In this document: piece after piece, positions 8,018 to 31,398 of the stretch | How the letters are laid out: every line of letters begins with the position of its first letter | Position numbering within the stretch: the stretch's first letter is position 1 | The notes under the pieces: generated by a model | What the model was told of the DNA's origin: nothing | Databases searched by the model: none | The model's input: only the letters and a program-made list of their open reading frames with translations | Position numbers and translations under genes: made by a program | Assembly (NCBI GenBank): GCA_964397485.1 | Contig: CAYNHT010000003.1 | Span: 10,529 to 74,528, forward strand | DNA length: 64,000 nucleotides | Direction: 5' to 3' | Source: an uncultured Muribaculaceae bacterium | GTDB lineage: Bacteria > Bacillota_I > Bacilli_A > RF39 > UBA660

Positions 8018-8103
8018 GCAGGAGTGGCGGAATGGTAGACGCGAAGGTCTCAAACACCTTTGGTAGAGATACTGTGTGGGTTCAAGTCCCATCTCCTGTA
8101 CCA
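8018..8103 (+). tRNA. tRNA-Leu (anticodon CAA), long variable arm, encoded CCA
   Basis: Cloverleaf: acceptor GCAGGAG/CTCCTGT, anticodon stem AAGGT/ACCTT with loop CTCAAAC, long extra arm, T-arm GGGTTCAAGTCCC, discriminator A, then CCA. Confidence 0.85.
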
Positions 8104-10833: not shown

Positions 10834-10888
10834 TGTAAAATAGTGTTTATAATATAGATTTTGTGGGAAATTATGGTATAATAATTAA

Positions 10889-11572
10889 ATGGAGGATGGT
10901 ATGATGAAACACTTTTATTTGTTTATACTATTTATGTTTTTTATCATATTAGTCCCAAACAAAGTAGATGCTTTATGTGATTATAATGAAAAAGCTCGAT
11001 TGAAGGCAATTGCTGCTAATATCACATTTAAAACAGATCATATTGAATCTGATGGACAAGTAGAGTTTTTTATAACACTTAGCAATCTACACCCTGAATT
11101 ATATGTGAAGGATGTTATGGGTTATAAATTTCACTATTATAATGCTTCTGCAAAGAATCCAAAAGAGTTAACAATTGGTGGTTACTCTCATGGTAGGACA
11201 ATACAGTATGAGTTTTATACTAAAAACGCTGGTTGTACGAATGAAGTCTTACTAATAAGGTACGTAACTTTACCTCCATATAATAGATTTTATAATGATC
11301 CTCTTTGCAAAGGTCTTGAAAGTTATACCTTATGTCAAAAGTGGGTTGTAAATAATCTTAGTTATGGCAACTTTAAAAAGCAGATTGAAGATTATAAAAA
11401 TAGACCTATTGTTGATCCCGATGATGAAGATCCAGGAGAAAAAATAGATCACTTTGATATGATTGCTAATTTTTTAGGTAAATATTATGTTTATATCTTA
11501 ATGACAATTATTATAGTGTGCTTAATATCAATATATAGAATAAATAAGAAAGATAGTTTCGACTTTTCATAG
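10889..11572 (+). CDS. Secreted protein with signal peptide and C-terminal TM anchor; unknown function
   Basis: N-terminal signal (FYLFILFMFFIILVPNKVDA) and C-terminal TM (YYVYILMTIIIVCLISIY). The stop lies 8 bp before the next gene. Confidence 0.4.
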   Translation: MEDGMMKHFYLFILFMFFIILVPNKVDALCDYNEKARLKAIAANITFKTDHIESDGQVEFFITLSNLHPELYVKDVMGYKFHYYNASAKNPKELTIGGYSHGRTIQYEFYTKNAGCTNEVLLIRYVTLPPYNRFYNDPLCKGLESYTLCQKWVVNNLSYGNFKKQIEDYKNRPIVDPDDEDPGEKIDHFDMIANFLGKYYVYILMTIIIVCLISIYRINKKDSFDFS

Positions 11573-11579
11573 GAGGTGT

Positions 11580-14500
11580 ATGTTTGTGAAAATTAAATTA
11601 CATAAATTAATTATGCTTGTAATAGGTATTTGTGTTATTGGTAGTGTAGGTAGTGTTTCTGCAGAAACTAACATCGGTGGTGGTGGTAATGCGGTTACTA
11701 ATCCTTGTAGCACATCTAGACCAGCAACTTGTTATAACGCTAAACTTGGGACTGGGTCGGGTGATAGTCTAGTACAAGGTGTACGTGTATCTGTTGTAGA
11801 TAAATATGGAAATAGAATACCAGGTACTACGAGTATAGATTATGTTCAAAACAGTGGGCATGCTAATCAAATAAGTACAAGCCCATATTTGAAATTTTTT
11901 CAAAGTGGTAAATATACCAAAAATGAGATATTAGCTGGAAAAGCGAGTGGTGCATCAGCAAGCGGGAGATACGCCGTAACTCATCTTGGTGAATTGCCAA
12001 CATTTATGAATATAGGACCTAATACGGTTATAGAAGATTATTTAAAAGCAAAAAAAGTTAATAGAGATTATACAAAATTAAAACAATTATTCATGGATCC
12101 CATAGGATATGATCCAAAAAAATTTCCGGCTAATGATGTGAAAACTCATTCTTTGCTTTTTGAACCATTAACTTTTATGAGAGTTACAAAATATCCAGTT
12201 TCTGGTTCCCCAACAATAACGAATTATTTTGGAACAGTAACGGAAGTTTCAAAAATGATGGTAGAAGATGGCACAATTTTATGGACGGGTTATTTTGGAA
12301 AGATGTTACCTTTAGCGATTTATGTTAGAGATTATAAAGACCCAATAACTGGCGCAACACAAACTAATCGTGCTGGGCTACAGTCAATTTCAGCTTGGGT
12401 AGCGGCAAATAAGAGTGATTATTCAACCGAAATTTTAACATCAAATGGTACGGCAGCAGGACACTTTTGGGTAAGTGAGTTGATTGAAGAGGAAAAGGAT
12501 CCTTGCGAAGTCAATCCTAATAAATTACCGGAGTGTTGTGCTTTACCACAAAATAAAAATAAATTACCAGAATGCTGTGGTTTAGAAGAAAACAAGAATA
12601 AACCGGAGTGTAATCCCGATCTATGCACATTCACATTGGACTTATCTTGTCCAGGAGATTGTGATGAAAGTACAACTGGTTATATTAAAGATATTGAAGA
12701 CTGGCAGTGTATTTTTGGAAGTAGAACAGCTACTGACGCTAATATAAGAGATCACTTCTACAAATGGGGAAATCGATATTGTTCAATGTTCTGTCGGGAG
12801 AGTTTAACTTATGAATTCCCTAATGGAAATATGACTGTATCTGCAGGAAGTCACTTCACAATTGGAGATACTTGGTATTACCCAAACTGGGGACCTGTTC
12901 ATTTTACTGGACGAAGTGAGTGTAGAACAACAAGTGATACAGGAAGTATTAGATGGGATTTATTCGAAAAAGATTGGGCTCCAGCTAATGATACTGTTAA
13001 AAGTAGATGGGATACTTATCAAATTGCTATAAAACAAGATGCAGCAGTTTCATCTTCGAGCTCCAGTGGTAAATTAGATTGTAATTGGACTTGTGATAGA
13101 TATCACCCTACATATCCTTGTGGTACTGCAGAAAAACCTAGCACTTGTGGTGGTGGTTGTGCGGCTGGAAGCTATAAAAGTACTACGATGTATCCAGCTT
13201 CAGCTTCATATGATGGTAAAAATATTACTCCAGGATCATGGTGTAGTAATAGTAGACCTAACTTCGATGTGCCTGGCAAACGTTCAAGTTATCTGAGTGC
13301 CGTAAATGCAAGAGATACTTTAGAAAGTAATCTACGTCAATGTAATGATTGGGAAAGAGGTTATGAAGAGTTCGAACCAGTCATTGGTTCTCAGTATGAA
13401 GAAGCAGTTTATGGCGGACATTATTATAATTTATCGAAAGTACTAGAAAGAAGAACTCAAACTCATTATTTCATCAATGGAAATAGTACGCCTTCGATTG
13501 ATACCTATAAAAGAACACGTTCGGATTATAGATATGTTTGTAATACAACTGGTGTTCCTTGTGTTAAAGGTCCGTCAGTAGGAGGAAGTTTGATGGTTTA
13601 CCCTACAAATGACTGGATAAGACAATTTACTACTAAAGAGTATGATTATACTTTACCAGCAAGTGTTTATAGATATGTTTTAAAACCATCTGGTGAATCT
13701 GTTAATCAAAAACCAGGTGCAGGAGAAAACTATGTTGATCTTGGTTATAGTAATTTACCAATTCATTATTCAAGAGCAACTGGTTCATATGATATATTTT
13801 TACAATATACTTCACTTGGACCTAATCACAACTTCAATAAATTTATTTTTGAAGGTGCTGAGTTAAATGTAAATTATGGAGAAAGTCTATCAATATATAC
13901 ATGGTTATTTGAAAATAACTTAACATGGATGATTGCCGATTGTGGTGAGGGTGGCCACCATTTAAGTCATTATTTTGGAGCCCCGCTTATTGCTGCAGGG
14001 CGTCTGAATGAATTTTTAGATTCGGGTTGTGCGAAACAATATGGTTGTAAATTGTTAGAAACTAGGTCACCATATCGTGTTTCATGTCCTGGCGATATTG
14101 TTGATAGTAGACATGGCGGGTCTTCGAGTAATTACAAACGTTTAATGCAGTGTATTGCAGAAAAGCGAATTGTTACTGCAAGTAGCGAAGAGTGTGATAC
14201 AAAATACGATTGTAAGTACAACGTTAGAAATTCATTAATGGATAACCCTAACGATCCAACACTTAATCCGCAAGGAATTGATGTTGTTTATCGTACGATC
14301 TCACTAACAAATCCATTCCCAGGTAAAAATGGTAATGGTAGAACTCCAGGCTCTAACTGGAATAGTAGTAGTTTAATTAAACAATATATTACTAATAATA
14401 GAAATTTATCAAATCCAGAAAGAATATATTTTGACCGTGAACCTATGTATGAAATTAATTTAACTCCGGTTGTAATAAAAGAAATAAGAACTCACAACCG

Positions 14501-14684
14501 TAAACAAGCTGCATATAACCGTGGTGGTTATGCTGATTTTGAGTTAAATTGTGGTACTGGAACTGGTCGTGAATGTAAGAGTTATTTTATAAGAGATGTA
14601 TTTAGTAAATATTTTATTTCTAATAGATGTGGAATGAGTAGCAACTGGAACGCTTGCCTTAATTCCGATAAGAGTAAGGGGTGA
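11580..14684 (+). CDS. Giant secreted Cys-rich protein (1034 aa, about three dozen Cys), candidate pilus tip adhesin/effector
   Basis: Signal peptide ...VGSVSA|ETN. Cys-rich repeats (NKLPECCALPQNKNKLPECCGLEENKNKPEC). No LPXTG motif and no C-terminal TM. It is the first gene of the Tad-like operon. Confidence 0.5.
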   Translation: MFVKIKLHKLIMLVIGICVIGSVGSVSAETNIGGGGNAVTNPCSTSRPATCYNAKLGTGSGDSLVQGVRVSVVDKYGNRIPGTTSIDYVQNSGHANQISTSPYLKFFQSGKYTKNEILAGKASGASASGRYAVTHLGELPTFMNIGPNTVIEDYLKAKKVNRDYTKLKQLFMDPIGYDPKKFPANDVKTHSLLFEPLTFMRVTKYPVSGSPTITNYFGTVTEVSKMMVEDGTILWTGYFGKMLPLAIYVRDYKDPITGATQTNRAGLQSISAWVAANKSDYSTEILTSNGTAAGHFWVSELIEEEKDPCEVNPNKLPECCALPQNKNKLPECCGLEENKNKPECNPDLCTFTLDLSCPGDCDESTTGYIKDIEDWQCIFGSRTATDANIRDHFYKWGNRYCSMFCRESLTYEFPNGNMTVSAGSHFTIGDTWYYPNWGPVHFTGRSECRTTSDTGSIRWDLFEKDWAPANDTVKSRWDTYQIAIKQDAAVSSSSSSGKLDCNWTCDRYHPTYPCGTAEKPSTCGGGCAAGSYKSTTMYPASASYDGKNITPGSWCSNSRPNFDVPGKRSSYLSAVNARDTLESNLRQCNDWERGYEEFEPVIGSQYEEAVYGGHYYNLSKVLERRTQTHYFINGNSTPSIDTYKRTRSDYRYVCNTTGVPCVKGPSVGGSLMVYPTNDWIRQFTTKEYDYTLPASVYRYVLKPSGESVNQKPGAGENYVDLGYSNLPIHYSRATGSYDIFLQYTSLGPNHNFNKFIFEGAELNVNYGESLSIYTWLFENNLTWMIADCGEGGHHLSHYFGAPLIAAGRLNEFLDSGCAKQYGCKLLETRSPYRVSCPGDIVDSRHGGSSSNYKRLMQCIAEKRIVTASSEECDTKYDCKYNVRNSLMDNPNDPTLNPQGIDVVYRTISLTNPFPGKNGNGRTPGSNWNSSSLIKQYITNNRNLSNPERIYFDREPMYEINLTPVVIKEIRTHNRKQAAYNRGGYADFELNCGTGTGRECKSYFIRDVFSKYFISNRCGMSSNWNACLNSDKSKG

Positions 14685-14689
14685 TGTAA

Positions 14690-15091
14690 GTGAAAGAATC
14701 ATTTTGGGCAGTTTTGGTTATATTAATGGGTATAATATCAATAGTATTTGTATACTTATTTCAAAATTTAACCAATACTGATGAACATAACTACCACTTA
14801 TTAAAAGAGGCTACTGAAGCAGCAATGTATGATGCTTTAGATTTAGCTGCTTATCGTAAAGATAAGACAATTAGAATTGATCGTGAAAAGTTTGTGGAAA
14901 ACTTTGTAAGAAGATTTGCGGAAAGTGCAAACCTTGCGCAAACTTACAATATAAAAATTTACGATGTTAATGAGACTCCCCCAAAAGTGAGCCTACAAGT
15001 TTCTAGTAGACAATCAGGAACTAGTGGCAGTGAAATTATTGAATTTGATATTGTTAATCGTATAGATGCAATATTGGAAACCCCATATTAG
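14690..15091 (+). CDS. Small pilin/pseudopilin-like protein (MKES leader, N-terminal hydrophobic helix)
   Basis: MKESFWAVLVILMGIISIVFVYLF followed by a ~110-aa soluble domain. Shares the M(K/R)E start with the three pilin-like genes at 18.9-20.0 kb. Confidence 0.35.
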   Translation: MKESFWAVLVILMGIISIVFVYLFQNLTNTDEHNYHLLKEATEAAMYDALDLAAYRKDKTIRIDREKFVENFVRRFAESANLAQTYNIKIYDVNETPPKVSLQVSSRQSGTSGSEIIEFDIVNRIDAILETPY

Positions 15092-15107
15092 AAAGGAATG
15101 AGAAGGA

Positions 15108-15947
15108 ATGAATAATATTATTATTTCAATCAAAAGATTTTTTAAAAACAAGAATACTGTTACAGTTGTTGGGATAATTGCAATAATTGGTATATTATAT
15201 TGGGGATATAATTACCAAATTAATAGACAAGTAAATCCAGTTAGAAATATTCCAATAGCAAAAACGACAATCCAACCTAGAACATTAATTACGGAGGAAA
15301 TGATTGACTATGTTGATATTGCTCCAATTGTGCTAAGACAAAATACTGTCACTTCTTCTAGATTAGTTGTTGGGAAATATACTGACTACAATACAGTTAT
15401 CCCAGAAGGAAGTTTATTTTATAAGAATGTTTTAGTAGATAAAGATGAACTACCAGATGCAGCTTTTGTTAAGGTAAAAGAAGGAGATGTTGTATATAAC
15501 TTCCCGGTTAATATGGATACTACTTATGGTAACTCTATTTTCCCAGGAAATAAAATTGACATCTATATGAAAGCAGAAAATGCAGGAAGACAAATTATGG
15601 TTGGGAAATTAATTGAGAATGTTGAGGTTATCGCTGTTAAAGATAGTAGTGGATTACATGTATTTGAAAATACGGAAGAAAGAAGAATTCCATCTACATT
15701 GATCTTTGGTGTAACTCCAGAAATTAATATCTTATTAAGAAAAGCAAGTTATATGAAATCATTTGCTGTTGAATTATTCCCAGTTCCTCATGGTGGGACA
15801 ATTGTAAACCAAGGTGAAATACAAGTTACTTCACAAAGTTTAAAAGATTTCATTAATGCTAATACTGTTCCTAATGATGATATTGTAGCTCCAATTGATG
15901 AAGACCCTATTATCGATGAAGAAAATAATGACGATATCGTAGGTTAG
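15108..15947 (+). CDS. CpaB/RcpC-like Flp pilus assembly protein (N-terminal TM + SAF-like domain)
   Basis: Single N-terminal TM, then a 'V..A..I..G..I..E.I..V.I.P......LVVGKY....I.EG' pattern typical of the CpaB SAF domain. Sits directly upstream of the CpaF-like ATPase. Confidence 0.45.
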   Translation: MNNIIISIKRFFKNKNTVTVVGIIAIIGILYWGYNYQINRQVNPVRNIPIAKTTIQPRTLITEEMIDYVDIAPIVLRQNTVTSSRLVVGKYTDYNTVIPEGSLFYKNVLVDKDELPDAAFVKVKEGDVVYNFPVNMDTTYGNSIFPGNKIDIYMKAENAGRQIMVGKLIENVEVIAVKDSSGLHVFENTEERRIPSTLIFGVTPEINILLRKASYMKSFAVELFPVPHGGTIVNQGEIQVTSQSLKDFINANTVPNDDIVAPIDEDPIIDEENNDDIVG

Positions 15948-15958
15948 GAGGAAAAATT

Positions 15959-17125
15959 ATGCATGATAATATATTTGCCCAGATAGACTTCGGTGCTTTA
16001 AACGAGTATATTCAAAATGATGACGTAACCGATGTTTCATATAGTAATGGTGGGCAAGTATGGTTAAAAACCTTATCAAAAGGTATATATAGAGTAGATA
16101 ATCCTGCAATCAATAATGCTTTTATGGAAAAACTAGCCTTTCAGTGTGCTAACGTTATGGGAAAGACATTTAATATGGCTCATCCTTTCTTAGATGCTGA
16201 AAGCGCTGAACTCCGTTTGAACTTTGTGCATGATTCAGTAGCACGTAATGGTGTTGCGGTAGTTATCCGTAAGACACCAGCTAAAATACGTCTTGAAAAA
16301 GAAAAAATTATTGAAGATAAGTATATTACTTTAAGTATTCATGATTTTTTAGTTAAGTGCATTGAGGGTCACTGTAATGTTATTGTTTGCGGTGAGACTG
16401 GTTCTGGTAAAACAGAATTTGTAAAATATTTAGCCTCTAAAACTAAAGAAAATGAAAAAATTATCACAATAGAAGATACTCTGGAACTTCACCTTGATAG
16501 AATTTTCCCGCATCGTGATATAGTTGCAATGAAAACTAATAATATCGCATCATATTCAGATGTGTTAGTCACATGTATGCGTCAAAATCCTAAATGGATA
16601 TTACTATCTGAGGTACGTAGTGCGGAGGCTGTTATGGCTGTTCGAAACTCAATATCATCAGGACATTACATTTTATCTACAATCCATGCTGATAAAGCAG
16701 CATCAATACCTAACCGTATGTACAGTCTATTAGAAACAAATCAAGATATTGAACAGTTCTTGAAATCTATTTACAGATACATACAACTAGGTATTTATGT
16801 TAGAGGATATCAAGATAAAGTTAGTAAACGTTTCATTCGTGAAATAGCAGAAGTGACAGAATTTTATGTAACACCTGATAATGAGGCTAAGTACAATACA
16901 ATCTATAGAAAGATGGCTGATGGAAGAGTTATCCAAAAGCGTCCTAGTGATTATTTATTCGATTATTTAGAAATACAAGGTGTTATGTTAGATAAGAATA
17001 TTATTCAACCAAGTGAAGATAAAGAAGATACTGAAATTACAGGTGAAGATATAAATACTGTGGTTGAACCAACGAATACTAATAGTGGTATTTTCGAAGA
17101 AAAAGTTGAAGTATTGTTTGAATAA
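15959..17125 (+). CDS. CpaF/TadA (VirB11-superfamily) secretion ATPase
   Basis: Walker A (GETGSGKTE), Asp box (TIEDTLEL), 'RQNPKWILLSEVRSAEA' (RxxPDxIxxGExR) and a His box (STIHA). Confidence 0.8.
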   Translation: MHDNIFAQIDFGALNEYIQNDDVTDVSYSNGGQVWLKTLSKGIYRVDNPAINNAFMEKLAFQCANVMGKTFNMAHPFLDAESAELRLNFVHDSVARNGVAVVIRKTPAKIRLEKEKIIEDKYITLSIHDFLVKCIEGHCNVIVCGETGSGKTEFVKYLASKTKENEKIITIEDTLELHLDRIFPHRDIVAMKTNNIASYSDVLVTCMRQNPKWILLSEVRSAEAVMAVRNSISSGHYILSTIHADKAASIPNRMYSLLETNQDIEQFLKSIYRYIQLGIYVRGYQDKVSKRFIREIAEVTEFYVTPDNEAKYNTIYRKMADGRVIQKRPSDYLFDYLEIQGVMLDKNIIQPSEDKEDTEITGEDINTVVEPTNTNSGIFEEKVEVLFE

Positions 17126-17137
17126 AGGAGGGATATA

Positions 17138-18043
17138 ATGAGTAGTGGTGTTATTTTTATAGTTATTTCTTTTATAGTTGTTTTTATTATAGCTTATAGA
17201 AAAAATACTGGTGAGAATGTCTATAAATATATAGTTAGGCAAGTTGGAACTGCCTATGATAAATATGCCCCTTTTTCATTTAAAGTAGTTAGAGAAAAGG
17301 TAAAAGATTTAGGTCAGGAGTATACTCCTAGACAATATGCGATTCAAATTACAATTTTTGCGTTAGGATCATTAATTATATCCTATATGTATTTCTATAG
17401 TTTGGTTATATCGCTAATGTATATGACTATATCTATAACAATAATTCCTTATTTAACATACTTAAGATGTAAGAGACTATATAGTGAGTTTATTTTTGAA
17501 CAAATTCAAGTATACACAACTAACGTAATTATGGAATTTGCAACAACTCAATCATTTGTTAAATCATTAGAGGGTGTTTACGAATCTGGGGTTTTAGAAG
17601 ACCCAGTAAAAAAAGATGTAAAAGCCATGATTGATTTGGCATATGAAAACGGTACTATATATGCATCTTTAGATCATATGGATAAAAATTACAATTTTTA
17701 TATAGTAAAGAACATGCATCAATTATTTTTACAAATAACTAATGAAGGTTCTAAAGATGCTGGTGCATCTTTAGAAAATATGTCTCTTGATATAGATATG
17801 TTAGTTGAAAGTGTGTATAGAGATAGATTAGACCGTTCATCATTCCATAAAAAGTTTTTACAATTTGGTATCGTTTTATACTTAATGGTAATGTTAGTAC
17901 AGTTTTTATTAGGTGTAGAAACCTATATAAAAATGCTTGATAACGTTCTTGTTCAGTTGTTACTGCACTTAATTGTCCTTGTTAATACATTATTTTTGTT
18001 AAATGGGGAAAAATATTACAATGAGAATGTGGGGGCGGAATAA
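17138..18043 (+). CDS. TadB-like platform membrane protein (T2SS-F-like topology)
   Basis: N-terminal TM, a cytoplasmic domain and C-terminal TM pair. Lies immediately downstream of the secretion ATPase, with a 4-bp overlap to the next gene. Confidence 0.45.
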   Translation: MSSGVIFIVISFIVVFIIAYRKNTGENVYKYIVRQVGTAYDKYAPFSFKVVREKVKDLGQEYTPRQYAIQITIFALGSLIISYMYFYSLVISLMYMTISITIIPYLTYLRCKRLYSEFIFEQIQVYTTNVIMEFATTQSFVKSLEGVYESGVLEDPVKKDVKAMIDLAYENGTIYASLDHMDKNYNFYIVKNMHQLFLQITNEGSKDAGASLENMSLDIDMLVESVYRDRLDRSSFHKKFLQFGIVLYLMVMLVQFLLGVETYIKMLDNVLVQLLLHLIVLVNTLFLLNGEKYYNENVGAE

Positions 18044-18825
18044 TGGAATTTATATTTATTGCGATAATAATACTATATATATTAGAAATTAATCGACAAG
18101 TAGATACAAAAAAATTCATTGATGATACCGAACCATATTTTCGCTTTTTAATGGAAGATGACTATAAGTTTTTATTGATGCTAAGATATGGGTCTGATGT
18201 TGATGTAAATAAATTATATACAATTAGAGTAAGAAATGGGTTAGTTGCAATTATATTTATGATTTTTGTCTTTATGACTAACCTAAATTTCATTAATGTA
18301 ATATTTGCTTTTATTGTTGGATTTATTATGTTTAAATTACCATATAATAAATTGCGCAATTTTTACAAAGCAAATCTTCATCAAATTAATTTAATGTTGC
18401 CTTATTATTTGAAGAGTTTAGAAATTTTAATTCAACATTATACAGTTCCAGTAGCGCTTGGGCGTTCAATTGAAACTGCACCAGACATATTCAAACCAGG
18501 TTTAAGAAAATTAATTGCTAAAATAGAATCTGGGGATCCAACGGTTGATCCATATATGGATTTTGCGAAAGAATACCCAGTTAGGGATTCAATGCGTATG
18601 ATGAGATTGTTATATCGACTTGGTCTTGGATCGCAAGAAAATAAGCAAGATCAATTGATGATGTTTTCTAGAACTGTGTCGGCACTTCAAAGTAAATCTA
18701 GGGAACAAAAATATCGTGATCGTCTCGATAAAATGGAAAATCAAACTATGTTAATGTTGGGGGTAACTGGTGGCGGAATAATGTTACTGATGTTACTGTC
18801 AATGATGATGATGATGCAATTTTAA
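18043..18825 (+). CDS. TadC-like platform membrane protein
   Basis: Same topology class as the previous gene. Second of the characteristic TadB/TadC pair. Confidence 0.45.
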   Translation: MEFIFIAIIILYILEINRQVDTKKFIDDTEPYFRFLMEDDYKFLLMLRYGSDVDVNKLYTIRVRNGLVAIIFMIFVFMTNLNFINVIFAFIVGFIMFKLPYNKLRNFYKANLHQINLMLPYYLKSLEILIQHYTVPVALGRSIETAPDIFKPGLRKLIAKIESGDPTVDPYMDFAKEYPVRDSMRMMRLLYRLGLGSQENKQDQLMMFSRTVSALQSKSREQKYRDRLDKMENQTMLMLGVTGGGIMLLMLLSMMMMMQF

Positions 18826-18892
18826 TGCTTGTTAATATTAGGCTTTTATGCTATAATTAATGTGTTGATAACGAAAGTAAGGTGGTGATAGA

Positions 18893-19084
18893 ATGAAAGA
18901 AGCGGCAGGGGAAGCAAACTTAACAGTAGTAGCTATTATTCTAATCGGGGTAATCGCGGCTGTTGTAACACCTATTGTCACAAACATGATGAATACTACT
19001 CAAAAAAGATCATGCTGTTTAAATAACGGTGGAACTTGGGTAAATGGTAAATGTCAAGGAGCTAGTGATGTTTGTCCTAGTTAA
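18893..19084 (+). CDS. Flp-like small pilin (63 aa) with a 4-Cys C-terminal knot
   Basis: MKEAAG|EANLTVVAIILIGVIAAVVTPIV: short leader ending in Gly, then a hydrophobic helix. C-terminus RSCCLNNGGTWVNGKCQGASDVCPS. Size and position match a Flp pilin. Confidence 0.5.
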   Translation: MKEAAGEANLTVVAIILIGVIAAVVTPIVTNMMNTTQKRSCCLNNGGTWVNGKCQGASDVCPS

Positions 19085-19104
19085 TTAATAAGAGGTGTTG
19101 ACTT

Positions 19105-19524
19105 ATGAGGGAAGGTATAGGAAGTGTCTTTTTATACAATATAATTATTACTTTTATAATAATAGTATTCGCTTTTTTGGCTGGAACTCTTAGTTATACT
19201 AAAGCCTTTAAAGTAAATACTAAAATAGTTAGTGCTATTGAAAAGTATGAGGGATATAATAATTTATCTAACAACGAGATAAATAAAGCGTTGCAAACTT
19301 TAGGTTATAGAATTAGTACAAATAATACTTGCCCCAAAAGGGATGGCAAGAGTGCCATGACTAATTTATCTAATAACTATAAGTATTGCGTATATGAATT
19401 TTCTGAAGGAAAAGGATATCGTACTTATGGAGTTGTAAGTTATATTTCTATTGATATTCCGATTATAGGTGGTTTATTACAAATACCTATATATTCAAGA
19501 ACAATAAAAATGTATAATTTTTAG
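19105..19524 (+). CDS. TadE/TadF-like pseudopilin, paralog 1
   Basis: MREGIG leader, hydrophobic helix, a conserved Cys pair (TCPKRDG...YKYCVY) and a C-terminal 'D(I/V)PIIG..(I/F)PIY' block shared with paralog 2. Confidence 0.45.
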   Translation: MREGIGSVFLYNIIITFIIIVFAFLAGTLSYTKAFKVNTKIVSAIEKYEGYNNLSNNEINKALQTLGYRISTNNTCPKRDGKSAMTNLSNNYKYCVYEFSEGKGYRTYGVVSYISIDIPIIGGLLQIPIYSRTIKMYNF

Positions 19525-19537
19525 AAGGTGAAGATAT

Positions 19538-19969
19538 ATGAGAGAATCAGTTGGTAATACGTTTATATTTAATACAATTATTATATTTGTTTCGATATTA
19601 ATTGCTTTATTAGTTGGTTCTCTTAGCTATTCAAAAGCTTTTAAAGTAAAAAACCGAATTGTATCAATAATTGAAAAGCATGAAGAATATAATTCAAGTG
19701 CTAGAAATGAAATTGAGGCTGCATTAGCAAGTATTGGTTATCGTGTCAATCCTAATGGCACACAATCGTGCCCTAATAGGGAAGGTGCGTCAGCTATTAA
19801 TACAACTAATAGTAACTACCGTTATTGTGTGTATCTGTATGATACAGGTACCTACGGTAAAGGGAGATATTATGGAGTTGCTGCTTATATGCACTTTGAT
19901 GTTCCGATTATTGGACAATTTATTGAGTTTCCCATTTATGGAGAAACCAGAATCATTTACGTTATATAG
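19538..19969 (+). CDS. TadE/TadF-like pseudopilin, paralog 2
   Basis: MRESVG leader. Colinear with 19105..19524, including the Cys pair (SCPNREG...YRYCVY). Confidence 0.45.
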   Translation: MRESVGNTFIFNTIIIFVSILIALLVGSLSYSKAFKVKNRIVSIIEKHEEYNSSARNEIEAALASIGYRVNPNGTQSCPNREGASAINTTNSNYRYCVYLYDTGTYGKGRYYGVAAYMHFDVPIIGQFIEFPIYGETRIIYVI

Positions 19970-19986: not shown

Positions 19987-20985
19987 ATGAATGTAATAGT
20001 TTCTAATAAATATCAGTCAATGCTTCAAAGTTTAAATATTGACATAATTAAAAATCAATCAGGTGAATTTGAAGTAGAGGAATTGATTTCAACTTTCCAA
20101 AACTTTTATTATCAAAGAATGATTTTAGATATTACAGCAATCAAAAATTATAAAGATGTTAAGACTTTGCAAAAATTGTCTATTTCTTTGGACATGGATA
20201 AAATAATTTTATTATTAGATGATTCTGCAGAAAGTACATCATCAGACTATTTATCAAAACTAATTTCAATGGGAATTTATAATTTTACTAGAAATATAGA
20301 GGGTATAATGTATTTATATCATAATCCAAATAGTTATCGTGATGTTGCTCACATTCATCAATTAGATAATTTTAACGATGAAGATAAAACTCAATTTGTT
20401 ATTAATGTTACTAACAACGGTGTTCGTATCGTTGGGGTGAAAAATGTTACTAAACAATCTGGGGCTACATCTTTAATCTACATGATGAAAAAGCAATTAG
20501 AACGAAATTATTCTGTGGTTGCACTTGAAGTTGATAAAAGGGATTTTATGTACTTTAAGGATAAAGAAATGCTTAGTGTTGTAAATGCCGAAGTAGGTAA
20601 TACAATTGCTAAACACAGTGATTGTGATATTATTTTAATTGATATAAATAATAGTGTGTCAGCAGAAGGTTTGTGTCATGACATTATCTATTTAATTGAA
20701 CCATCAGTTATAAAGCTTAACAAACTTATGATGCTTGATGGTAAAATATTGGAAAGACTAAAAAATAAGAAAGTTATTTTAAATCAAAGTATGCTAAGCT
20801 CTAAAGATGTGTTAGACTTTGAATATGAATCAAGAATTAAAGTTTTCTACAATATGCCACCTTTGGATGAGAGGGAAAAGGAAATTCATATTTTAAATGT
20901 GTTTTTAACAAGATTAGGGTTCGATCGTCAAAAGAGTGAAGAAACTGAGAAAAAAAATAAACTTTTAGGTTTATTCAACATATAA
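19987..20985 (+). CDS. TadZ/CpaE-like protein (receiver-like N-domain + degenerate ParA/MinD-like domain)
   Basis: Position in the locus, and 'GVKNVTKQSGATSLIYMM' where MinD/ParA proteins carry GKGGVGKTT. The Walker A is degenerate, as in many TadZ proteins. Confidence 0.3.
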   Translation: MNVIVSNKYQSMLQSLNIDIIKNQSGEFEVEELISTFQNFYYQRMILDITAIKNYKDVKTLQKLSISLDMDKIILLLDDSAESTSSDYLSKLISMGIYNFTRNIEGIMYLYHNPNSYRDVAHIHQLDNFNDEDKTQFVINVTNNGVRIVGVKNVTKQSGATSLIYMMKKQLERNYSVVALEVDKRDFMYFKDKEMLSVVNAEVGNTIAKHSDCDIILIDINNSVSAEGLCHDIIYLIEPSVIKLNKLMMLDGKILERLKNKKVILNQSMLSSKDVLDFEYESRIKVFYNMPPLDEREKEIHILNVFLTRLGFDRQKSEETEKKNKLLGLFNI

Positions 20986-21042: not shown

Positions 21043-21372
21043 ATGTTTATATTAGCGACAACAGTTCAATGTGGTGGATACAATGTACCCGTTCCAATTA
21101 TTAACATAGTTCATACAATTGTTGAACTTATTAAAATTGGTGTTCCTATTTTATTAGTTATCTTTGGTATGCTTGATTTAGGAAAAGCTGTTATGGCTCA
21201 AAAAGAGGATGAAATCAAAAAAGGACAACAAACTTTTATTAAGAGATTAATCGCAGCTGCAATTGTTTTCTTTGTAATCGTAATTGTGCAGTTAGTATTC
21301 AATTTAGCTAGCGGCGGAGATGAAGCAAACATCTGGAGTTGTGTAGAAAAATTCGTTGTAACTGGTGCTTAA
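21043..21372 (+). CDS. VirB2/TrbC-like conjugative pilin candidate (two hydrophobic helices separated by a charged loop)
   Basis: IGVPILLVIFGMLDLGKAV...FIKRLIAAAIVFFVIVIVQLVF. The same ~60-aa module forms the C-terminus of 21456..23054. Followed by a hairpin and T-run. Confidence 0.4.
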   Translation: MFILATTVQCGGYNVPVPIINIVHTIVELIKIGVPILLVIFGMLDLGKAVMAQKEDEIKKGQQTFIKRLIAAAIVFFVIVIVQLVFNLASGGDEANIWSCVEKFVVTGA

Positions 21373-21380
21373 AAAGAGAA

Positions 21381-21416
21381 AAAACAATTAATATCTATTT
21401 ATTATTGTTTTTTTTT
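21381..21416 (+). terminator. Terminator/attenuator after the small pilin-like gene (AAAACAAT-15 nt-ATTGTTTT + T6)
   Basis: 8-bp stem, a large loop and a T-run. Followed by an extended -10 (TGTTATAAT). Confidence 0.4.
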
Positions 21417-21455
21417 ATGTTATAATGTAGGTGGTTAATTATCGACATAGGAGTT

Positions 21456-23054
21456 GTGAATATGAAATTAAATAAATATATTATTTCGTTTGTTTTATTA
21501 GGAATATTTTTTTTAGGTGGCATAAATGGTGTTAAAGCGGAAGTAGATGCAGTTAGTGGTGCTGCCCCAATAGCAGAAAACGCTTTTTATGCTAGTACTA
21601 AGTGTTGGTATGAACGTAGTAACGGTAAACAAGCTGTTATTGAAAGAAAATATACGGCTAATGGTATTGTTAACACTGTTACTAGATATAAGAAAGATGG
21701 GAGTCTTGATGACACCAAAGATAGAACTATTGCCTTTACTGGTTTTTGGTATGTTTATAACAATACTACTGAGTGTCCAAAATCAGTTGATATAAAAGGT
21801 GGGGGATTGTTTAGTGCTGATCAAATATATCCTTTTGATTACGAAACTGAATATGTACTATATAAACAAGAAGCTACGGGAGAAAACTTATTAAATAAAT
21901 TGCCTACTTGTGAGTATCAGTCAAATGTTTCTCAATATAAGGGAGAAGAATTTAAATTAATTCATACCCCAGTTTTTGAGGACTATAAAACACATTATAG
22001 TGAAATTTATGTTAAAATTCTGACATTTAAAGTTAGTGTTCAAAAGACAATCTTGCAAGATGGTGATTTTGTATGGATAGATGAAACTAGTACCCCTTTA
22101 TTGGGTGATAAAAATCAGTACACTACTACATGTCCAACATACGCACATTATAATCCACCAGGGAGTATACACGAGTATGTTCTGACAAGTTCTTTTGATA
22201 AACCAAAAGGATGGAAAGAAGATTATATTTTAGAGAGATATGTTGATTTTTCTAGTCAAGAAGCAGCAATGGATAAAATTCATGATGATTTCAAAAAAAT
22301 TGACGATGACATATATTATGATTTATCTGATTGTTTTGATTCGCTTACAATAAATGCTTCAACCTGTGATACGGTTAATTTAAAAAGCGGGTGTTTAACT
22401 TTAGATAAGTTAAAAAGTCTTGATCAAAAATTGGTAAGTGCTTATAACGATGCAATGGCAAAGATAAGGGCGATTAAATTAGATGGTGATTATACAGTTA
22501 AAGATATAGAGGAAGGTAATATAAGTTCTTCTATATACAAAGGTATATCACAAAAATATGCTACTATTATAGAATCGATCAAGAAAAAATTTAGCCTTAG
22601 TAGTGAAATGATAAGTTGTGCATACTTGAAATTAGAAAATGACACAACTCTTACCGAAGAAGAAAAAGAAGAAATAACTACAGCAAGAGCAGAATCGGAA
22701 GAAGAAAGAAGCGTAATAATAAAAGAACTATCGAGAATTGATGGTAATTTTAACGTTGATCCAGGTGAATATGATTGTAGTGTTATATTAGATGATGCGA
22801 TGATAGAATGGATAGAAGCTGCATTTTTATTCATCCAAATAGGTGCTGCAGTTGTGGTTGCTGTTATGGGAATGTTAGATTTTTCTAGAGCAGCCGTGTC
22901 AAATGATGCCGATGCGATGAAGAAGGCTTGGCAAAAATTCATTAAGAGGTTGCTGGCTTTACTTATATTATTATTGTTACCATTTATTATTCAATTTTTA
23001 TTGGGATTGATTGAAATTCCAGGTTTAACTAATACAGACCCATTATGCAAATAG
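21456..23054 (+). CDS. Secreted ~450-aa domain fused to a C-terminal VirB2-like two-helix membrane module
   Basis: Signal peptide (GGINGVKA). C-terminus IGAAVVVAVMGMLDFSRAAV...FIKRLLALLILLLLPFIIQFLLGL aligns with 21043..21372. Confidence 0.45.
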   Translation: MNMKLNKYIISFVLLGIFFLGGINGVKAEVDAVSGAAPIAENAFYASTKCWYERSNGKQAVIERKYTANGIVNTVTRYKKDGSLDDTKDRTIAFTGFWYVYNNTTECPKSVDIKGGGLFSADQIYPFDYETEYVLYKQEATGENLLNKLPTCEYQSNVSQYKGEEFKLIHTPVFEDYKTHYSEIYVKILTFKVSVQKTILQDGDFVWIDETSTPLLGDKNQYTTTCPTYAHYNPPGSIHEYVLTSSFDKPKGWKEDYILERYVDFSSQEAAMDKIHDDFKKIDDDIYYDLSDCFDSLTINASTCDTVNLKSGCLTLDKLKSLDQKLVSAYNDAMAKIRAIKLDGDYTVKDIEEGNISSSIYKGISQKYATIIESIKKKFSLSSEMISCAYLKLENDTTLTEEEKEEITTARAESEEERSVIIKELSRIDGNFNVDPGEYDCSVILDDAMIEWIEAAFLFIQIGAAVVVAVMGMLDFSRAAVSNDADAMKKAWQKFIKRLLALLILLLLPFIIQFLLGLIEIPGLTNTDPLCK

Positions 23055-23069
23055 AGAGGTGGAGATTTT

Positions 23070-24914
23070 ATGGATTGGTTAGAGAGTATTGTTAGATTCC
23101 TATTTGCATGGATAGACAAGATTATTGCTTGGGTAATAGAACAAGCATATTCTCTTTTTATACTAATATCTGATACTAATATCTTCAATCAACAAGTTTT
23201 AGAGATGTTTAGTAGGAGAGTATATGCCTTACTTGCAATATTTATGTTATTTAAATTAGCGTTTTCGCTAATTAATTATATTATAAATCCTGATGATTTT
23301 ACTGATAAAAGTAAGGGGGCAGCTAAGCTCATAACAAATGTTTTTATTGTGTTAGGACTTATTGTTACCGTACCTTACATGTTTAAATTAGCTTATGATT
23401 TTCAAGGGTTAGTGGTAAAAAATAGTGTCATTCAAAAAGTTGTGTTAGGTGTTGGTGGCGCTAGTGTTAAGGATGACCAAACGCCTGGGAAAATTATGGC
23501 ATTTACTGTGTATAGTGCGTTTGTTACACCAAATCCAAATTATCCAGGTATGGATGATAAGTGTGATGAATTATATTCAAAGCGTGAGGTTAGTCCTGAT
23601 TGTGAAGATATTGTAAGATCAGCTGCTGGGCCGAATGGACCATTAATTTTGAAAAATGCAGTTGATGCATATGATAGTCAATCTCTATTAAATTATGATT
23701 TAATAGTTAACGCGAAAACGAACAAACAATTTTTATTTAATTATACACCTATTATATCTAGTATATGTGCTGGTATAGTAGCATGGATAATTTTGATTTT
23801 CTGTATTGATATAGCAATTCGTGTTGTAAAACTTGGGTTCTTACAACTTATTGCTCCGATACCTATCATTTCATATGTAGATCCAAAAAGTTCAAAAGAG
23901 GGGATGTTTAAAAAATGGACTAAAATATGTTTCTCAACATATGCAGATTTATTTGTCCGTTTGATTGCAATCTCATTTGCGATTTTCATTATAAACATAA
24001 TAGGAACCGGAGAAATAACTAAGATTAGTAAACCTGATGAAGTTATTAGTTTTACTACACATCCATTTGTTAAGATTTTCATTCTCTTAGGAGCATTAAT
24101 GTTTGCTAAGCAAATACCGAAATTAATTGAAGATTTAACTGGTGTTAAAATGGGTGATAGTTTCACTTTAAATCCTATGAAAAAAGTAGGAGCATCACCA
24201 TTTGCTGCTGCCGCATTAGGTGGTGTTGGTGGTCTTGTAGGTGGTGGACTTGCTAATGCTTATGCTGCTGGTAGTAATATGAGAAAGACTATTGGTGAAA
24301 AAGGATTACGAGATGCATTTACTGGAGGGAAAACTGGTGTTAGAGGATTCATGCATGGTGCTGGAACAGTTTTTGGTGGAGCCGGTACAGTTATTGCTGG
24401 TGGTGCAAGTGGTATGTTTAGAGGTGGCGGAGCCGCAGCTAAAGATAAAAATGTTGGCGGAGGTATTGTCAAAGGGATTAAGGGTTCTGTTGACGCTCGT
24501 GATATACGTGATGCAAGGCAAGAAGCAGACTATGGTATAGCAACTAGAGGAATGGATACTATTAGAGGAATGGCTGGTGTAGATACGCAAGCTAAGGAAA
24601 GAGCAAATGAAATAAAAGGTAAGATAACTAACTTACAAAGACAACAAGCTCAATATGATAGTATTGCCGAAAATATTGCTGTTACAAACAATTATACTCC
24701 TGAGAAAATTACTCAACTTTCTCAAGCATCAAGACAAGAGTTGCCTGGAGGAGTTGTTCAATACCGTGATGCTGCTGGTGCAACGATTACAGATGCTAAC
24801 GAGATTAAATACTTAGAAGCAGTTACACGTTCTAGCAAAACAAGTGTTGAAATTATTAAAACTAATAAAAAGTTAAAGATTTATGAAGCTGAAAACAATA
24901 AAAAGACAAGTTAA
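23070..24914 (+). CDS. VirB6/TrbL-like polytopic channel protein (TcpH/Orf15-like) with Gly-rich C-terminal region
   Basis: At least 6 TMs in the first 400 aa, then a Gly/Ala-rich low-complexity tract (GGVGGLVGGGLANAYAAG...GGGAAAKD). Lies upstream of VirB3/VirB4. Confidence 0.55.
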   Translation: MDWLESIVRFLFAWIDKIIAWVIEQAYSLFILISDTNIFNQQVLEMFSRRVYALLAIFMLFKLAFSLINYIINPDDFTDKSKGAAKLITNVFIVLGLIVTVPYMFKLAYDFQGLVVKNSVIQKVVLGVGGASVKDDQTPGKIMAFTVYSAFVTPNPNYPGMDDKCDELYSKREVSPDCEDIVRSAAGPNGPLILKNAVDAYDSQSLLNYDLIVNAKTNKQFLFNYTPIISSICAGIVAWIILIFCIDIAIRVVKLGFLQLIAPIPIISYVDPKSSKEGMFKKWTKICFSTYADLFVRLIAISFAIFIINIIGTGEITKISKPDEVISFTTHPFVKIFILLGALMFAKQIPKLIEDLTGVKMGDSFTLNPMKKVGASPFAAAALGGVGGLVGGGLANAYAAGSNMRKTIGEKGLRDAFTGGKTGVRGFMHGAGTVFGGAGTVIAGGASGMFRGGGAAAKDKNVGGGIVKGIKGSVDARDIRDARQEADYGIATRGMDTIRGMAGVDTQAKERANEIKGKITNLQRQQAQYDSIAENIAVTNNYTPEKITQLSQASRQELPGGVVQYRDAAGATITDANEIKYLEAVTRSSKTSVEIIKTNKKLKIYEAENNKKTS

Positions 24915-24935
24915 ATAAAAAGGGTGTGATATTAG

Positions 24936-27563: not shown

Positions 27564-27577
27564 CATTTAATATGTAA

Positions 27578-30619: not shown

Positions 30620-30672
30620 TTAGGAGGAAAAGTAATGTATAAATTGAGAATAATATATAAAGGTGCCGAGAT

Positions 30673-31386: not shown

Positions 31387-31398
31387 TGAGGTGAGATA

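Follow-up and report, generated by a model that had tools for sequence, protein, structure and literature searches.

Can proteins that begin with an unusually short, charged leader be pilin precursors in a locus that carries no gene for a prepilin peptidase? The question is raised by four genes of the window (the whole stretch of DNA analyzed, 64,000 nucleotides), found on the plus strand at 14690, 18893, 19105 and 19538 and each preceded by a Shine-Dalgarno-like sequence 6-9 nt 5' of the start. The reading that we favor, with a probability of about one half, is that the four products are pilins with class III signals, and that the peptidase which trims them is encoded at another place in the genome.

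Four proteins with a common N-terminal layout

The first of these proteins (14690..15091, plus strand; 133 aa) is a pilin-like member of the DUF5411 family (PF17424, E=2.1e-53); it has a GTG start and begins MKESFWA/VLVILMGIISIVFVYLF, with a predicted 7-residue leader (nt 14690-14710) followed by a transmembrane helix. A 63-aa protein (18893..19084, plus strand) begins MKEAAG/EANLTVVAIILIGVIAAVVTPIV (leader at nt 18893-18910), while two minor-pilin-like proteins of 139 aa (19105..19524, plus strand) and 143 aa (19538..19969, plus strand), paralogues with 50% identity in alignment, begin MREGIG/SVFLYNIIITFIIIVFAFLAG (nt 19105-19122) and MRESVG/NTFIFNTIIIFVSILIALLVG (nt 19538-19555), respectively. 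The common start can be written M-[K/R]-E-[A/S]-x(1-2)-[G/A/S]; a hydrophobic helix of about 20 residues comes next. The M[KR]E start alone occurs in 6 of the 61 plausible genes of the window; the full pattern, M[KR][EQ][ASG]x(1-2)[GAS] with a transmembrane helix, is found only in these four. As the sequence-only reading had claimed, all four lack the canonical G/xxxxEY and G/FxxxE motifs, and none has Glu at +5. The published class III signal has a hydrophilic leader, with Gly or Ala as its last residue, ahead of 20-25 hydrophobic residues; Glu5 is present "often but not always" (PMC10191384). The layout of the four N-termini fits this definition.

The original observation of a shared class-III-like N-terminus holds in all four proteins, and more strongly than first stated, the pattern being kept in the corresponding loci of over 80 species. 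In the four divergent families the last leader residue is Gly, Ala or Ser in about 98% of homologues, with Asn, Thr or Met in a few, and E3 is retained in 112 of 132, 77 of 78 and 53 of 61 homologues of the family sets. For the DUF5411 protein the sequence-only reading is to be corrected in one point, since its leader too ends in a small residue: this is Ala7, replaced by Gly in most homologues (M-[KR]-E-S-F-W-[G51 A6 S3 M1] in 61 unique sequences). Homologues of the 63-aa protein read M-K-E-A-[AST]-G-E-A-N-[LM]-T-V, with Gly6 in 76 of 78 and Ser in the other 2; an alignment of 26 homologues shows no change at positions 1-3, 6-9 and 11, which are near-invariant in the 78 unique ones. Position 6 of the upstream paralogue is Gly in 80 and Ser in 4 of 84 homologues, that of the downstream paralogue Gly in 46, Ala in 25, Ser in 9 and Asn in 4 homologues of related loci, and the paralogue family as a whole shows G101/S14/A14/N2/T1 among 132 representatives drawn from clusters built at 50% identity. 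Nearly all of 150 listed representatives of this family match from residue 1, so that the leader length is fixed. PilD-type enzymes require little beyond Gly at -1; the leader is conserved beyond the needs of a removed peptide, which hints at a function of the N-terminus itself or at a specialized partner.

The names "Flp-like pilin" and "pseudopilin pair", given earlier to the 63-aa protein and to the paralogues, reflect size, position and topology, and were not borne out at the level of families, since none of the Pfam families Flp_Fap, TadE and N_methyl matches the pilin-like proteins significantly. In the 63-aa candidate major subunit the leader is followed by EANLTV, a transmembrane helix with a conserved Thr-Pro and a short Cys-rich tail; Flp_Fap does not match, and the sole trace of a pilin family is GspG at a sub-threshold E=0.069. 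The upstream paralogue has no Pfam match, and the family of the downstream one, which forms 110 clusters at 90% identity and has 1490 representatives at the 50% level, contains no Pfam domain in either set. AF2 models predict, for the downstream paralogue, which has two invariant Cys, a helix at 2-48, a second at 53-66 and four strands (pLDDT 84.6), and for the DUF5411 protein a helix at 2-48, two short helices and three strands (pLDDT 74). Both models thus show an N-terminal helix of about 47 residues and then a small beta-sheet, the "lollipop" layout of pilins. Foldseek searches of the PDB with the two models returned no pilin and nothing significant; the top matches of the DUF5411 model are weak, NTF2- or cystatin-like folds, including the conjugation NTF2-like protein 3ub1.

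A Tad-like module in a type IV secretion cluster

The four genes belong to a Tad-like module whose content and gene order are conserved, formed by the DUF5411 protein, a CpaB-like protein, a TadA/VirB11-like ATPase, two polytopic proteins, the 63-aa Flp-like protein and the two paralogues. The CpaB/RcpC-like protein (15108..15947, plus strand; 279 aa, N-terminal transmembrane segment) matches PF16976 RcpC at E=8.9e-6, below cut-off, and TIGR03177 CpaB at E=1.4e-6; RcpC is recorded for its orthologues. The ATPase (15959..17125, plus strand; 388 aa; PF00437 T2SSE, E=5.7e-27) belongs to the TadA/CpaF-VirB11 group, with VirB11 TIGR02788 at E=3.8e-33 and TadA-family TIGR03819 at E=1.1e-29, both below their cut-offs, and the ComGA model at E=2e-23, well below cut-off. 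Its closest plasmid relatives are the "VirB11-like ATPase" genes of the pLS20 family (about 31% identity). The polytopic proteins of 301 aa (17138..18043, plus strand) and 260 aa (18043..18825, plus strand) are TadB-like and TadC-like platform candidates by position and topology. The former has five hydrophobic segments around a soluble region of about 130 residues and a median identity of 71% across species, the latter 69%; Pfam, NCBIfam and PDB sequence searches gave no match for the first, family searches nothing significant for the second, and the two show neither detectable mutual similarity nor similarity to T2SSF. The T2SSE-family ATPase, the CpaB/RcpC-like protein and the two polytopic neighbors fit a filament machine. 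Downstream, a conserved cytoplasmic protein (19987..20985, plus strand; 332 aa), present in 84 of 88 loci, has no family or PDB match; a Walker-A-like stretch aligns weakly (Prob 3.6%) to an AAA_31 protein of plasmid pBMB68, and a TadZ-like role is possible.

The genes just upstream (9217..14684, plus strand), with synteny kept in the relatives examined, encode three proteins: one of 538 aa, polytopic and with an Ig-like ectodomain; one of 227 aa, secreted or anchored; and a giant one of 1034 aa, secreted, rich in Cys and a candidate adhesin. This giant gene and that of the DUF5411 protein are present or absent together across loci.

A context that the sequence-only reading had missed is that the module is not a stand-alone Tad island, being embedded in a Gram-positive type IV secretion cluster. 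The genes at 21043..33702 (plus strand), assigned by Pfam matches and by precomputed Pfam records of orthologues, include VirB2/T4SS_pilin-like, TrbL/VirB6-like, PrgI/VirB3-like and TraC-like proteins, VirB4, an M23 hydrolase, two lipoproteins and the coupling protein VirD4; housekeeping genes start after 33702. The VirB2-like label of the 21043 gene derives from position, two transmembrane segments and a weak TadE match, and the T4SS_pilin domain (weak) is recorded for a neighboring 122-aa gene in one related locus (L008), not for the 21043 orthologue.

The same module is found on the conjugative plasmids of the pLS20 family and on Bacillus thuringiensis pBMB68, where it is uncharacterized. 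Block 36-41 of the pLS20 family (e.g., in pBatNRS213) and the block of pBMB68 present the parts in the same order as the window: a large surface protein (the Tie adhesin in the pLS20 family, at the position of the giant gene, and an 851-aa protein in pBMB68), a small N-anchored DUF5411 or DUF5411-like protein, a VirB11/TadA-like ATPase, two polytopic proteins that match no family, and finally small N-anchored proteins (DUF4320) with a tiny hydrophobic protein. In pBMB68 the CpaB/RcpC-like protein has its counterpart as well, a SAF plus RcpC protein, and the plasmid blocks are likewise clustered with VirB4, VirD4, TrbL/VirB6, PrgI and a cell-wall hydrolase. Gene 36 of the pLS20 family matches DUF5411 at Pfam E=6e-5 (hhalign Prob 55%, E=1.2e-4); a tblastn search of plasmid sequences with the DUF5411 protein of the window found nothing, and the paralogue family has no significant match to DUF4320. 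The plasmid proteins differ in lacking the M-K/R-E...G leader, with N-termini such as MKGSIMTLG, MLEGSVMAIG and MLDQNADRMYWVIG; moreover, the plasmids are mobile and carry a relaxase, whereas the cluster of the window sits on the chromosome, lacks a relaxase and is fixed next to scpAB, a position kept in uncultured gut Bacilli. In the pLS20 family, genes 36 and 38-41 carry the label "unknown" (PMC8557374), and DUF5411 had already been noted beside CpaF and PilC/GspF genes in Clostridia (PMC9523054).

Possible processing of the leaders

The earlier statement that the island has no A24/TadV gene was upheld: PF01478 matches no polytopic ORF of the window, and no GxGD-type motif occurs in its six frames. 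The same motif is absent from 1.54 Mb of related loci (88 loci), no A24 Pfam family appears among the called genes of those related loci for which gene tables were returned, and no unexplained polytopic ORF recurs in the 88 loci besides the two platform-like proteins. The polytopic protein at 8220..9098, named at first as a candidate TadV, was rejected: it has no Pfam match and belongs to a widespread, unrelated family of uncharacterized Firmicute membrane proteins, whose Ruminiclostridium cellulolytium member sits in an unrelated gene context. Conversely, the G/FTLIE signal reported at the left edge of the window is real. The protein at 1645..3306 (plus strand) begins MKKKG/FTLIELLAV and matches PF07963 N_methyl above cut-off (E=1.7e-7), and another N_methyl protein is found immediately upstream of the window. 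With canonical N_methyl proteins encoded in the genome, an A24 enzyme is to be expected somewhere in it; as the peptidase is missing from this cluster and from about 90 related ones, it must act from elsewhere in the genome or not be needed. The lack of a peptidase in a locus is not in itself unusual: it is the rule for MSH loci, systems exchange their peptidases, and tadV may occur as a "loner" (PMC6668835). The earlier proposal that a PilD/ComC-type enzyme encoded elsewhere may process the island pilins is reasonable. The plasmids share the module, and the part of pBMB68 examined (6-68 kb) has no annotated prepilin peptidase; this suggests that a host enzyme would be used there, if one is needed.

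In the favored reading, the four genes would encode type-IV-pilin-like subunits of a Tad-like filament module within a monoderm type IV secretion machine, the 63-aa protein probably being the major subunit, the 139-aa and 143-aa paralogues minor subunits, and the DUF5411 protein a further minor subunit that may couple the upstream-encoded giant secreted protein to the filament. The hydrophobic helix would insert each protein N-in, and the 6-7-residue leader would be cut on the cytoplasmic side by a prepilin peptidase of the A24 family whose gene lies elsewhere in the chromosome, either the PilD/ComC-type enzyme that the genome's own G/FTLIE proteins require or a TadV not linked to the locus. 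Assembly of the mature subunits would then be the task of the TadA/VirB11-like ATPase, the two polytopic proteins and the CpaB-like protein.

The main alternative, somewhat unlikely in our opinion, is that the proteins stay uncleaved, as bitopic N-in membrane proteins whose leader motif is a cytoplasmic docking or assembly signal and which need no prepilin peptidase. They could be leaderless pilins with an intact N-terminus, the charges of K/R2 and E3 replacing the pair formed by the N-terminal amine and Glu5; an established view holds against this that extraction from the membrane of a subunit with uncompensated N-terminal charges is unfavorable (PMC10191384). They could also be stalk or channel components of a type IV secretion machine, similar to VirB8-type proteins; a 63-aa protein that is nearly all helix is hard to read in this way. 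The absence of a locus-linked peptidase in 88 species and of an annotated one in the pBMB68 regions examined, the unusual conservation of the "leader" including its acidic position 3, the missing Glu at +5, the failure of every pilin family test (Pfam/NCBIfam families, Foldseek), the non-significant NTF2- or cystatin-like Foldseek tops of the DUF5411 model, 3ub1 among them, and the statement that Gram-positive conjugative elements make no pili (PMC8557374) all speak for uncleaved proteins. Against them, the strict Gly, Ala or Ser at a fixed position of the cytoplasm-membrane boundary in four divergent families is the prediction of a peptidase site; together with the fixed leader length it favors prepilin peptidase cleavage, and a plain membrane anchor gives no reason for it.

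It is improbable that a peptidase outside the A24 family, encoded in the locus itself, cuts the leader. Candidates are the "dark" polytopic proteins at 17138 and 18043 and the 538-aa protein at 9217, three families that are kept with the module and have no recognizable family or PDB relative; the plasmid versions carry equally unassignable polytopic proteins, and the strong leader conservation suggests a dedicated recognition partner. However, none has a GxGD-like motif or an invariant membrane-proximal Asp pair, and positive evidence of protease activity is missing; in the 301-aa and 260-aa proteins it is the soluble region in the middle that contains the invariant acidic residues, in agreement with a platform with a cytoplasmic helical domain, and the two genes directly follow the ATPase, in the place of TadB and TadC. 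Least credible is that the paralogues carry ordinary Sec signal peptides, cut by signal peptidase I after Y-S/T-K-A (residue 34) with release of soluble proteins: Y31-x-K33-A34 is invariant in the downstream family and its S-K-A triplet resembles an AxA-type site placed where the hydrophobic segment ends, but the -3 residue of the upstream family is often Tyr, Met, Phe or Asn, none tolerated under the -3/-1 rule of this enzyme, the AF2 helix runs unbroken through the site (residues 2-48, pLDDT about 90), the n-region has no net positive charge, and the 63-aa and DUF5411 proteins have no such site.

Comparison with known pilus systems

The Tad (type IVc) system comprises Flp, TadE/F, TadA, TadB/C, CpaB/RcpC, TadZ and TadV. 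The window's module resembles it in its gene for a hydrophobic subunit of about 60 aa with two larger pilin-like genes behind it, in its ATPase, which is from the same superfamily and has two separate polytopic proteins directly after it, and in its CpaB/RcpC-like protein. Differently from Tad, it has no TadV, no G/xxxxEY motif, no Flp_Fap or TadE Pfam match and no T2SSF signature, a TadZ-like role is only possible, and the module lies inside a type IV secretion cluster. Like the loci for MSH pili, it encodes (candidate) pilins, ATPase and platform without a peptidase of its own, processing being presumed to be carried out by an enzyme of another system in the same genome (PMC6668835). MSH pilins, however, have canonical N_methyl signals with Glu5, and their co-resident peptidase is known from genome surveys, whereas the signal in the window is non-canonical. 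From the Com pseudopilus the module is set apart by the lack of sequence similarity and of an N_methyl match, and by an ATPase of the TadA/VirB11 rather than the ComGA type. Possible points of likeness are that, in Bacillus subtilis, the ComG minor pilins have short leaders with Lys or Glu before the Gly, one subunit lacks Glu5, and the ComC peptidase that processes ComGC-GG is encoded outside the comG operon.

A common leader in four pilin-like proteins

The sequence-only reading had placed four genes with a common short leader at 14690, 18893, 19105 and 19538, and all four are present as described, each with a purine-rich ribosome-binding site before its start. The DUF5411 protein (14690) begins with MKESFWA-VLVILMG..., the 63-aa Flp-like protein (18893) with MKEAAG-EANLTVVAIILIG..., and the upstream (19105) and downstream (19538) paralogues with MREGIG-SVFLYNIII... 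and MRESVG-NTFIFNTIII..., respectively. A class III signal is defined by a short hydrophilic leader ending in Gly or Ala, followed by 20-25 mainly hydrophobic residues (PMC10191384). The leaders of the four proteins, hydrophilic and 6-7 residues long, agree with that of type IV pilins (IPR012902, PF07963), and the stretch that follows has the hydrophobicity of such signals, the hydropathy of each over 19 residues being 2.7-2.8; in the four families the terminal leader residue is Gly, Ala or Ser in about 98% of the homologues, Ser being a minority variant that goes beyond the strict Gly/Ala wording of the definition. An M[KR]E start is not rare in this AT-rich genome (6 of 61 window genes); only these four also have a small amino acid as residue 6 or 7 and, directly behind it, a transmembrane helix.

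The leader is highly conserved. The family of the downstream paralogue comprises 110 clusters at 90% identity, and an exhaustive profile search with it retrieved 1490 representatives at 50% identity. With one genome scanned per species, 384 matching stretches were obtained, nearly all from MAGs of uncultured gut bacteria that bear the labels Bacilli, Mollicutes, Tenericutes or Erysipelotrichaceae, and gene order is nearly invariant across 88 loci. The 63-aa protein has the consensus M-K-E-A-[AST]-G-E-A-N-[LM]-T-V, with Gly6 in 76 of 78 unique sequences, and Gly6 is found in 80 of 84 homologues of the upstream paralogue. At position 6 the downstream paralogue has G46/A25/S9/N4, and the paralogue family as a whole G101/S14/A14/N2/T1 (132 representatives, clusters at 50% identity). 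For DUF5411 the consensus is M-[KR]-E-S-F-W-[G51 A6 S3 M1]; since its homologues mostly have Gly at the last of these positions, Ala7 of the window protein is the counterpart of that Gly. Nearly all of the 150 representatives listed among the 1490 match from residue 1 onwards, and therefore the length of the leader is invariant. Such a fixed small residue at the cytoplasm-membrane boundary of four divergent families is what a prepilin-peptidase site predicts.

The names "Flp-like" and "pseudopilin" refer to size, position and topology, and not to membership of the N_methyl, Flp_Fap or TadE profiles. No match at E<=0.1 was obtained with N_methyl (PF07963) for any of the four proteins, in contrast to the 1579-3306 protein of the same window, which matches it at E=1.7e-7; Flp_Fap (PF04964) was likewise without a match at E<=0.1, and TadE (PF07811) at the same threshold for the two paralogues. 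Precomputed Pfam domains are present in none of the 110 clusters of the 19538 family. The canonical motifs are missing, as had been claimed: G/xxxxEY is absent, Gly6 of the 63-aa protein being followed by EANLTV, and at mature +5 Glu is replaced by Thr (Flp-like protein), Tyr or Phe (paralogues) or Leu (DUF5411). Glu at this position is frequent, not obligatory, in mature type IV pilins (PMC10191384).

The AF2 model of the paralogue family, which has two invariant Cys, shows a helix at residues 2-48, a second one at 53-66 and four strands (pLDDT 84.6); that of DUF5411, built from database homologues, has a helix at 2-48, two short helices and three strands (pLDDT 74). Both predicted folds are compatible with the pilin lollipop. 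Foldseek found no significant match in the PDB for either model, and a search of PDB sequences with the paralogue family profile gave nothing significant.

Prepilin peptidase and fate of the leader

The reported lack of an A24 or TadV peptidase in the island was upheld by Pfam, motif and related-locus scans. Every polytopic ORF of the window was scanned against Pfam and none matched PF01478; none of the frames of the window contains a GxGD-type motif, nor do membrane proteins across 1.54 Mb of related loci, where the A24 motif scan returned four matches, all in long non-membrane proteins. For the related loci that were examined, precomputed Pfam annotation records no A24 family, and TadV is found neither in the window nor in 88 related loci. 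The only recurrent polytopic ORFs of 110-400 aa in these loci are the two proteins that follow the ATPase; nine other unexplained polytopic ORFs proved to be antisense artefacts, FtsX, a glycosyltransferase-like insert or type IV secretion proteins. In the window, the six-TM ORF of 207 aa at 35786 is a DUF2238 protein, and the remaining polytopic ORFs have ordinary assignments. The 8220..9098 protein, singled out beforehand as a possible hidden TadV, has neither a Pfam match nor a GxGD motif; its family counts 178 homologues in many Firmicutes, including Ruminiclostridium, Evansella and Pelotomaculum, with no Pfam domain among the 120 listed, and the R. cellulolyticum homologue lies in an unrelated gene context. 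For these reasons it is rejected as a TadV. That the locus has no peptidase of its own is a real feature and holds throughout the family, in the window and 88 loci alike.

The canonical prepilin signal noticed at the left edge of the window is also real (MKKKG/FTLIELLAV at 1645), and another N_methyl protein is encoded just before the window begins. A search for pilD/comC to the left of the window found only hydrolases and two N_methyl proteins. The presence of canonical class III signals in the genome implies that an A24 enzyme is to be expected elsewhere. Two large proteins with canonical N_methyl signals (861 and 553 aa) have repeat-rich bodies (window 223-4245 and about 5 kb upstream, L092 4599-9893), and no pilus assembly genes are found beside them. 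ORFs 223-1536 and 3340-4245 have a similar C-terminal domain of about 200 residues, ending in ...ELRNFDMSI(Q/T)PTN.

A locus without its own peptidase is not unprecedented among type IV filaments: all MSH loci lack one, a peptidase can serve more than one system and tadV can lie apart from its locus (PMC6668835), a precedent for a trans-acting enzyme. We put at roughly one in two the probability that the four proteins are class-III-signal subunits of a Tad-like filament of the secretion machine and that an A24 peptidase with its gene elsewhere cuts their leader behind Gly6 or Ala7. The earlier observation is confirmed and extended, and its interpretation supported in part.

That the proteins stay uncleaved is the main alternative, to which we give clearly less weight; the leader, including Glu3, is better conserved than a discarded peptide needs to be, Glu is missing at +5 and all pilin profile tests failed, and on the other side stands the small residue kept at the leader end. 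A broader proposal, which we consider unlikely, is a type-IV-filament-like structure independent of A24, with N-termini either intact or cut by a new kind of enzyme encoded in the locus; it would be the missing "pilus" of a Gram-positive T4SS class that includes the conjugation systems of pLS20 and pBMB68. In the version with intact N-termini, the near-invariant K/R2-E3 pair would stand in for the pairing of the N-terminal amine with Glu5. If processing were indeed A24-independent, a defining rule of type IV filaments would change. A new type of peptidase within the locus is itself improbable: the invariant acidic residues of both polytopic proteins (17138 and 18043) are in the soluble middle, as would be the case for platform proteins, and the alignment of the 538-aa protein shows no catalytic-looking motif. 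Cleavage by signal peptidase I after Y-S-K-A can hardly be maintained, because bulky residues are frequent at -3 in the sister paralogue family and the site would fall inside a continuous, confidently predicted helix.

Composition and genomic setting of the cluster

The window is of low GC content (about 29%) and derives from a spore-forming Firmicute, GerA/B/C and SpoIVA being present. From 9217 to 33702 all genes are on the + strand. The first three genes of the locus encode a polytopic protein of 538 aa (with an Ig-like ectodomain), a protein of 227 aa and a secreted, Cys-rich protein of 1034 aa; these are followed by DUF5411 (E=2e-53), a CpaB/RcpC-like protein and a T2SSE ATPase, then by the two polytopic proteins without family match, the 63-aa protein, the two paralogues and a conserved 332-aa protein. 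The type IV secretion genes come next, on the same strand: VirB2/T4SS_pilin-like, TrbL/VirB6, PrgI/VirB3, TraC-like, VirB4, M23 hydrolase, two lipoproteins and VirD4. The cluster is followed by rhodanese, DedA, RmuC, RNase R, SmpB and tmRNA.

The ATPase matches T2SSE at E=5.7e-27, while VirB11 and TadA-family models score about equally, both below cut-off. The two polytopic proteins, each with about 70% identity between species, suit TadB/TadC in position and topology; neither matches PF00482 (T2SSF), the family of the Tad platform, and a profile search against PDB sequences gave nothing significant for them, nor for the 332-aa protein. In the 538-aa protein (9217-10833) the N-terminus is nearly invariant (MILRKPYAFLIK). 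The protein has four to five TM helices and, on the cytoplasmic side, an acidic linker (DNEEFEV), and its Ig-like ectodomain contains two conserved Cys; its only family assignment is a weak DUF4352 match.

The giant 1034-aa protein and DUF5411 (11580-15091 region) are both present in 47 of 56 related loci and both absent from 5; DUF5411 occurs without a detectable giant protein in 4, and the reverse in none. This near-joint presence and absence fits a subunit that carries an adhesin, and suggests that the two form an adhesin-plus-carrier pair. DUF5411 was earlier noted beside CpaF and PilC/GspF genes in Clostridia (PMC9523054). Farther along (21043-23054), the C-terminal 90 or so residues of a 532-aa protein (21456-23054) resemble the preceding 109-aa VirB2/T4SS_pilin-like protein in the two-TM layout and in the motif MLD..(K/R)A...(D/E)..(M/I)KK..Q.FIKRL; this region thus carries two copies of the pilin-like module, one of them joined to a large ectodomain.

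Searches for relaxase and integrase domains from 8220 to 33702 gave no match, and the cluster is flanked by housekeeping genes. A tRNA-Leu(CAA) lies at 8018-8103, just upstream of the 8220 gene, and a tmRNA gene (41561-41905, tag VTYNKKITGNRNQLAFA) follows smpB and RNase R. Integration of an island at the tRNA-Leu was considered and rejected, no direct or att-like repeat being found there; neither this gene nor the tmRNA shows signs of an integration site. The cluster adjoins scpAB in five other species (loci L004, L056, L059, L068 and L078), and hence in at least six with the window. In those five, ScpA and ScpB are 54-60% identical to the window proteins, as compared with 79-85% for VirB4, about 80% for the TraC-like protein and 72-79% for the ATPase. 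Since the position beside scpAB is kept and the core is more conserved than ScpA and ScpB, the cluster looks vertically inherited, strongly constrained and not recently mobile. Together with the lack of a relaxase, this suggests that it serves the host, in adhesion, cell-to-cell contact or delivery of protein or DNA, rather than selfish transfer.

Related modules on conjugative plasmids

Clustering of VirB4, VirD4, VirB6/TrbL, PrgI/VirB3 and a cell-wall hydrolase places the system with the monoderm T4SS of the pLS20/pBMB68 type, and the same cluster also holds a VirB11-like ATPase and a DUF5411(-like) gene. On plasmids, the window ATPase has its nearest relatives in the "VirB11-like ATPase" of Bacillus conjugative plasmids that belong to the pLS20 family. 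On one of these, pBatNRS213 (L089, 8428-13239), the Tie adhesin is followed by a 126-aa protein with an N-terminal anchor (gene 36), the VirB11-like ATPase, two polytopic proteins (genes 38 and 39), a DUF4320 protein that again has an N-terminal anchor (gene 40) and two copies of a 47-aa hydrophobic protein, with VirD4 and VirB6 farther along; the Tie adhesin holds the place that matches that of the giant protein of the window. Gene 36 matches DUF5411 (Pfam E=6e-5; hhalign Prob 55%, E=1.2e-4). Genes 36 and 38-41 are given as "unknown" by the authors who described the family, according to whom Gram-positive elements do not make conjugative pili (PMC8557374). Gene 45 (78 aa) matches Pfam T4SS_pilin with 28.8 bits (cut-off 26.6), in contrast to the 2021 description of the pLS20 family as encoding no VirB2 homolog.

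The layout of the B. thuringiensis plasmid pBMB68 is nearer to the window cluster than that of pBatNRS213: an 851-aa protein, DUF5411, SAF/RcpC, an AAA_31 ATPase, a T2SSE ATPase, two polytopic proteins without match, a 115-aa protein and DUF4320 (L090, 23705-33027), in the neighbourhood of MobP3, VirD4, TrbL, PrgI, VirB4 and NlpC/P60. No annotated prepilin peptidase is found on this plasmid between 6 and 68 kb. The conjugation operons of pBMB68 and of the pLS20 family have the same module, made of a DUF5411-like protein, VirB11-like ATPase, two polytopic proteins, DUF4320 and tiny hydrophobic proteins. Comparisons by hhalign were not significant for the paralogues against DUF4320, nor for the two polytopic families against each other and against pLS20-family genes, positional counterparts included; tblastn of the window DUF5411 gave no match among plasmids. 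The M-K/R-E...G leader is absent from the plasmid proteins and specific to the chromosomal clade.

Literature searches turned up no description of a Tad-like module for RF39-type bacteria or for Gram-positive T4SS, and none is mentioned for Gram-positive conjugation machines in a recent review on type IV secretion (PMC12857230). The data point to such a module: in many gut Bacilli and on well-studied Bacillus plasmids, pilin-like proteins are encoded together with a pilus-type ATPase and platform-like membrane proteins within a T4SS cluster. What is new is the non-canonical, nearly invariant leader common to four pilin-like families, a simple experimental handle, and its setting in a Tad-like module built into a chromosomal, relaxase-less Gram-positive T4SS cluster. 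The window cluster looks like a domesticated, possibly important machine of its host, and in this it recalls the T4SS of Patescibacteria, described as essential (PMC12857230).
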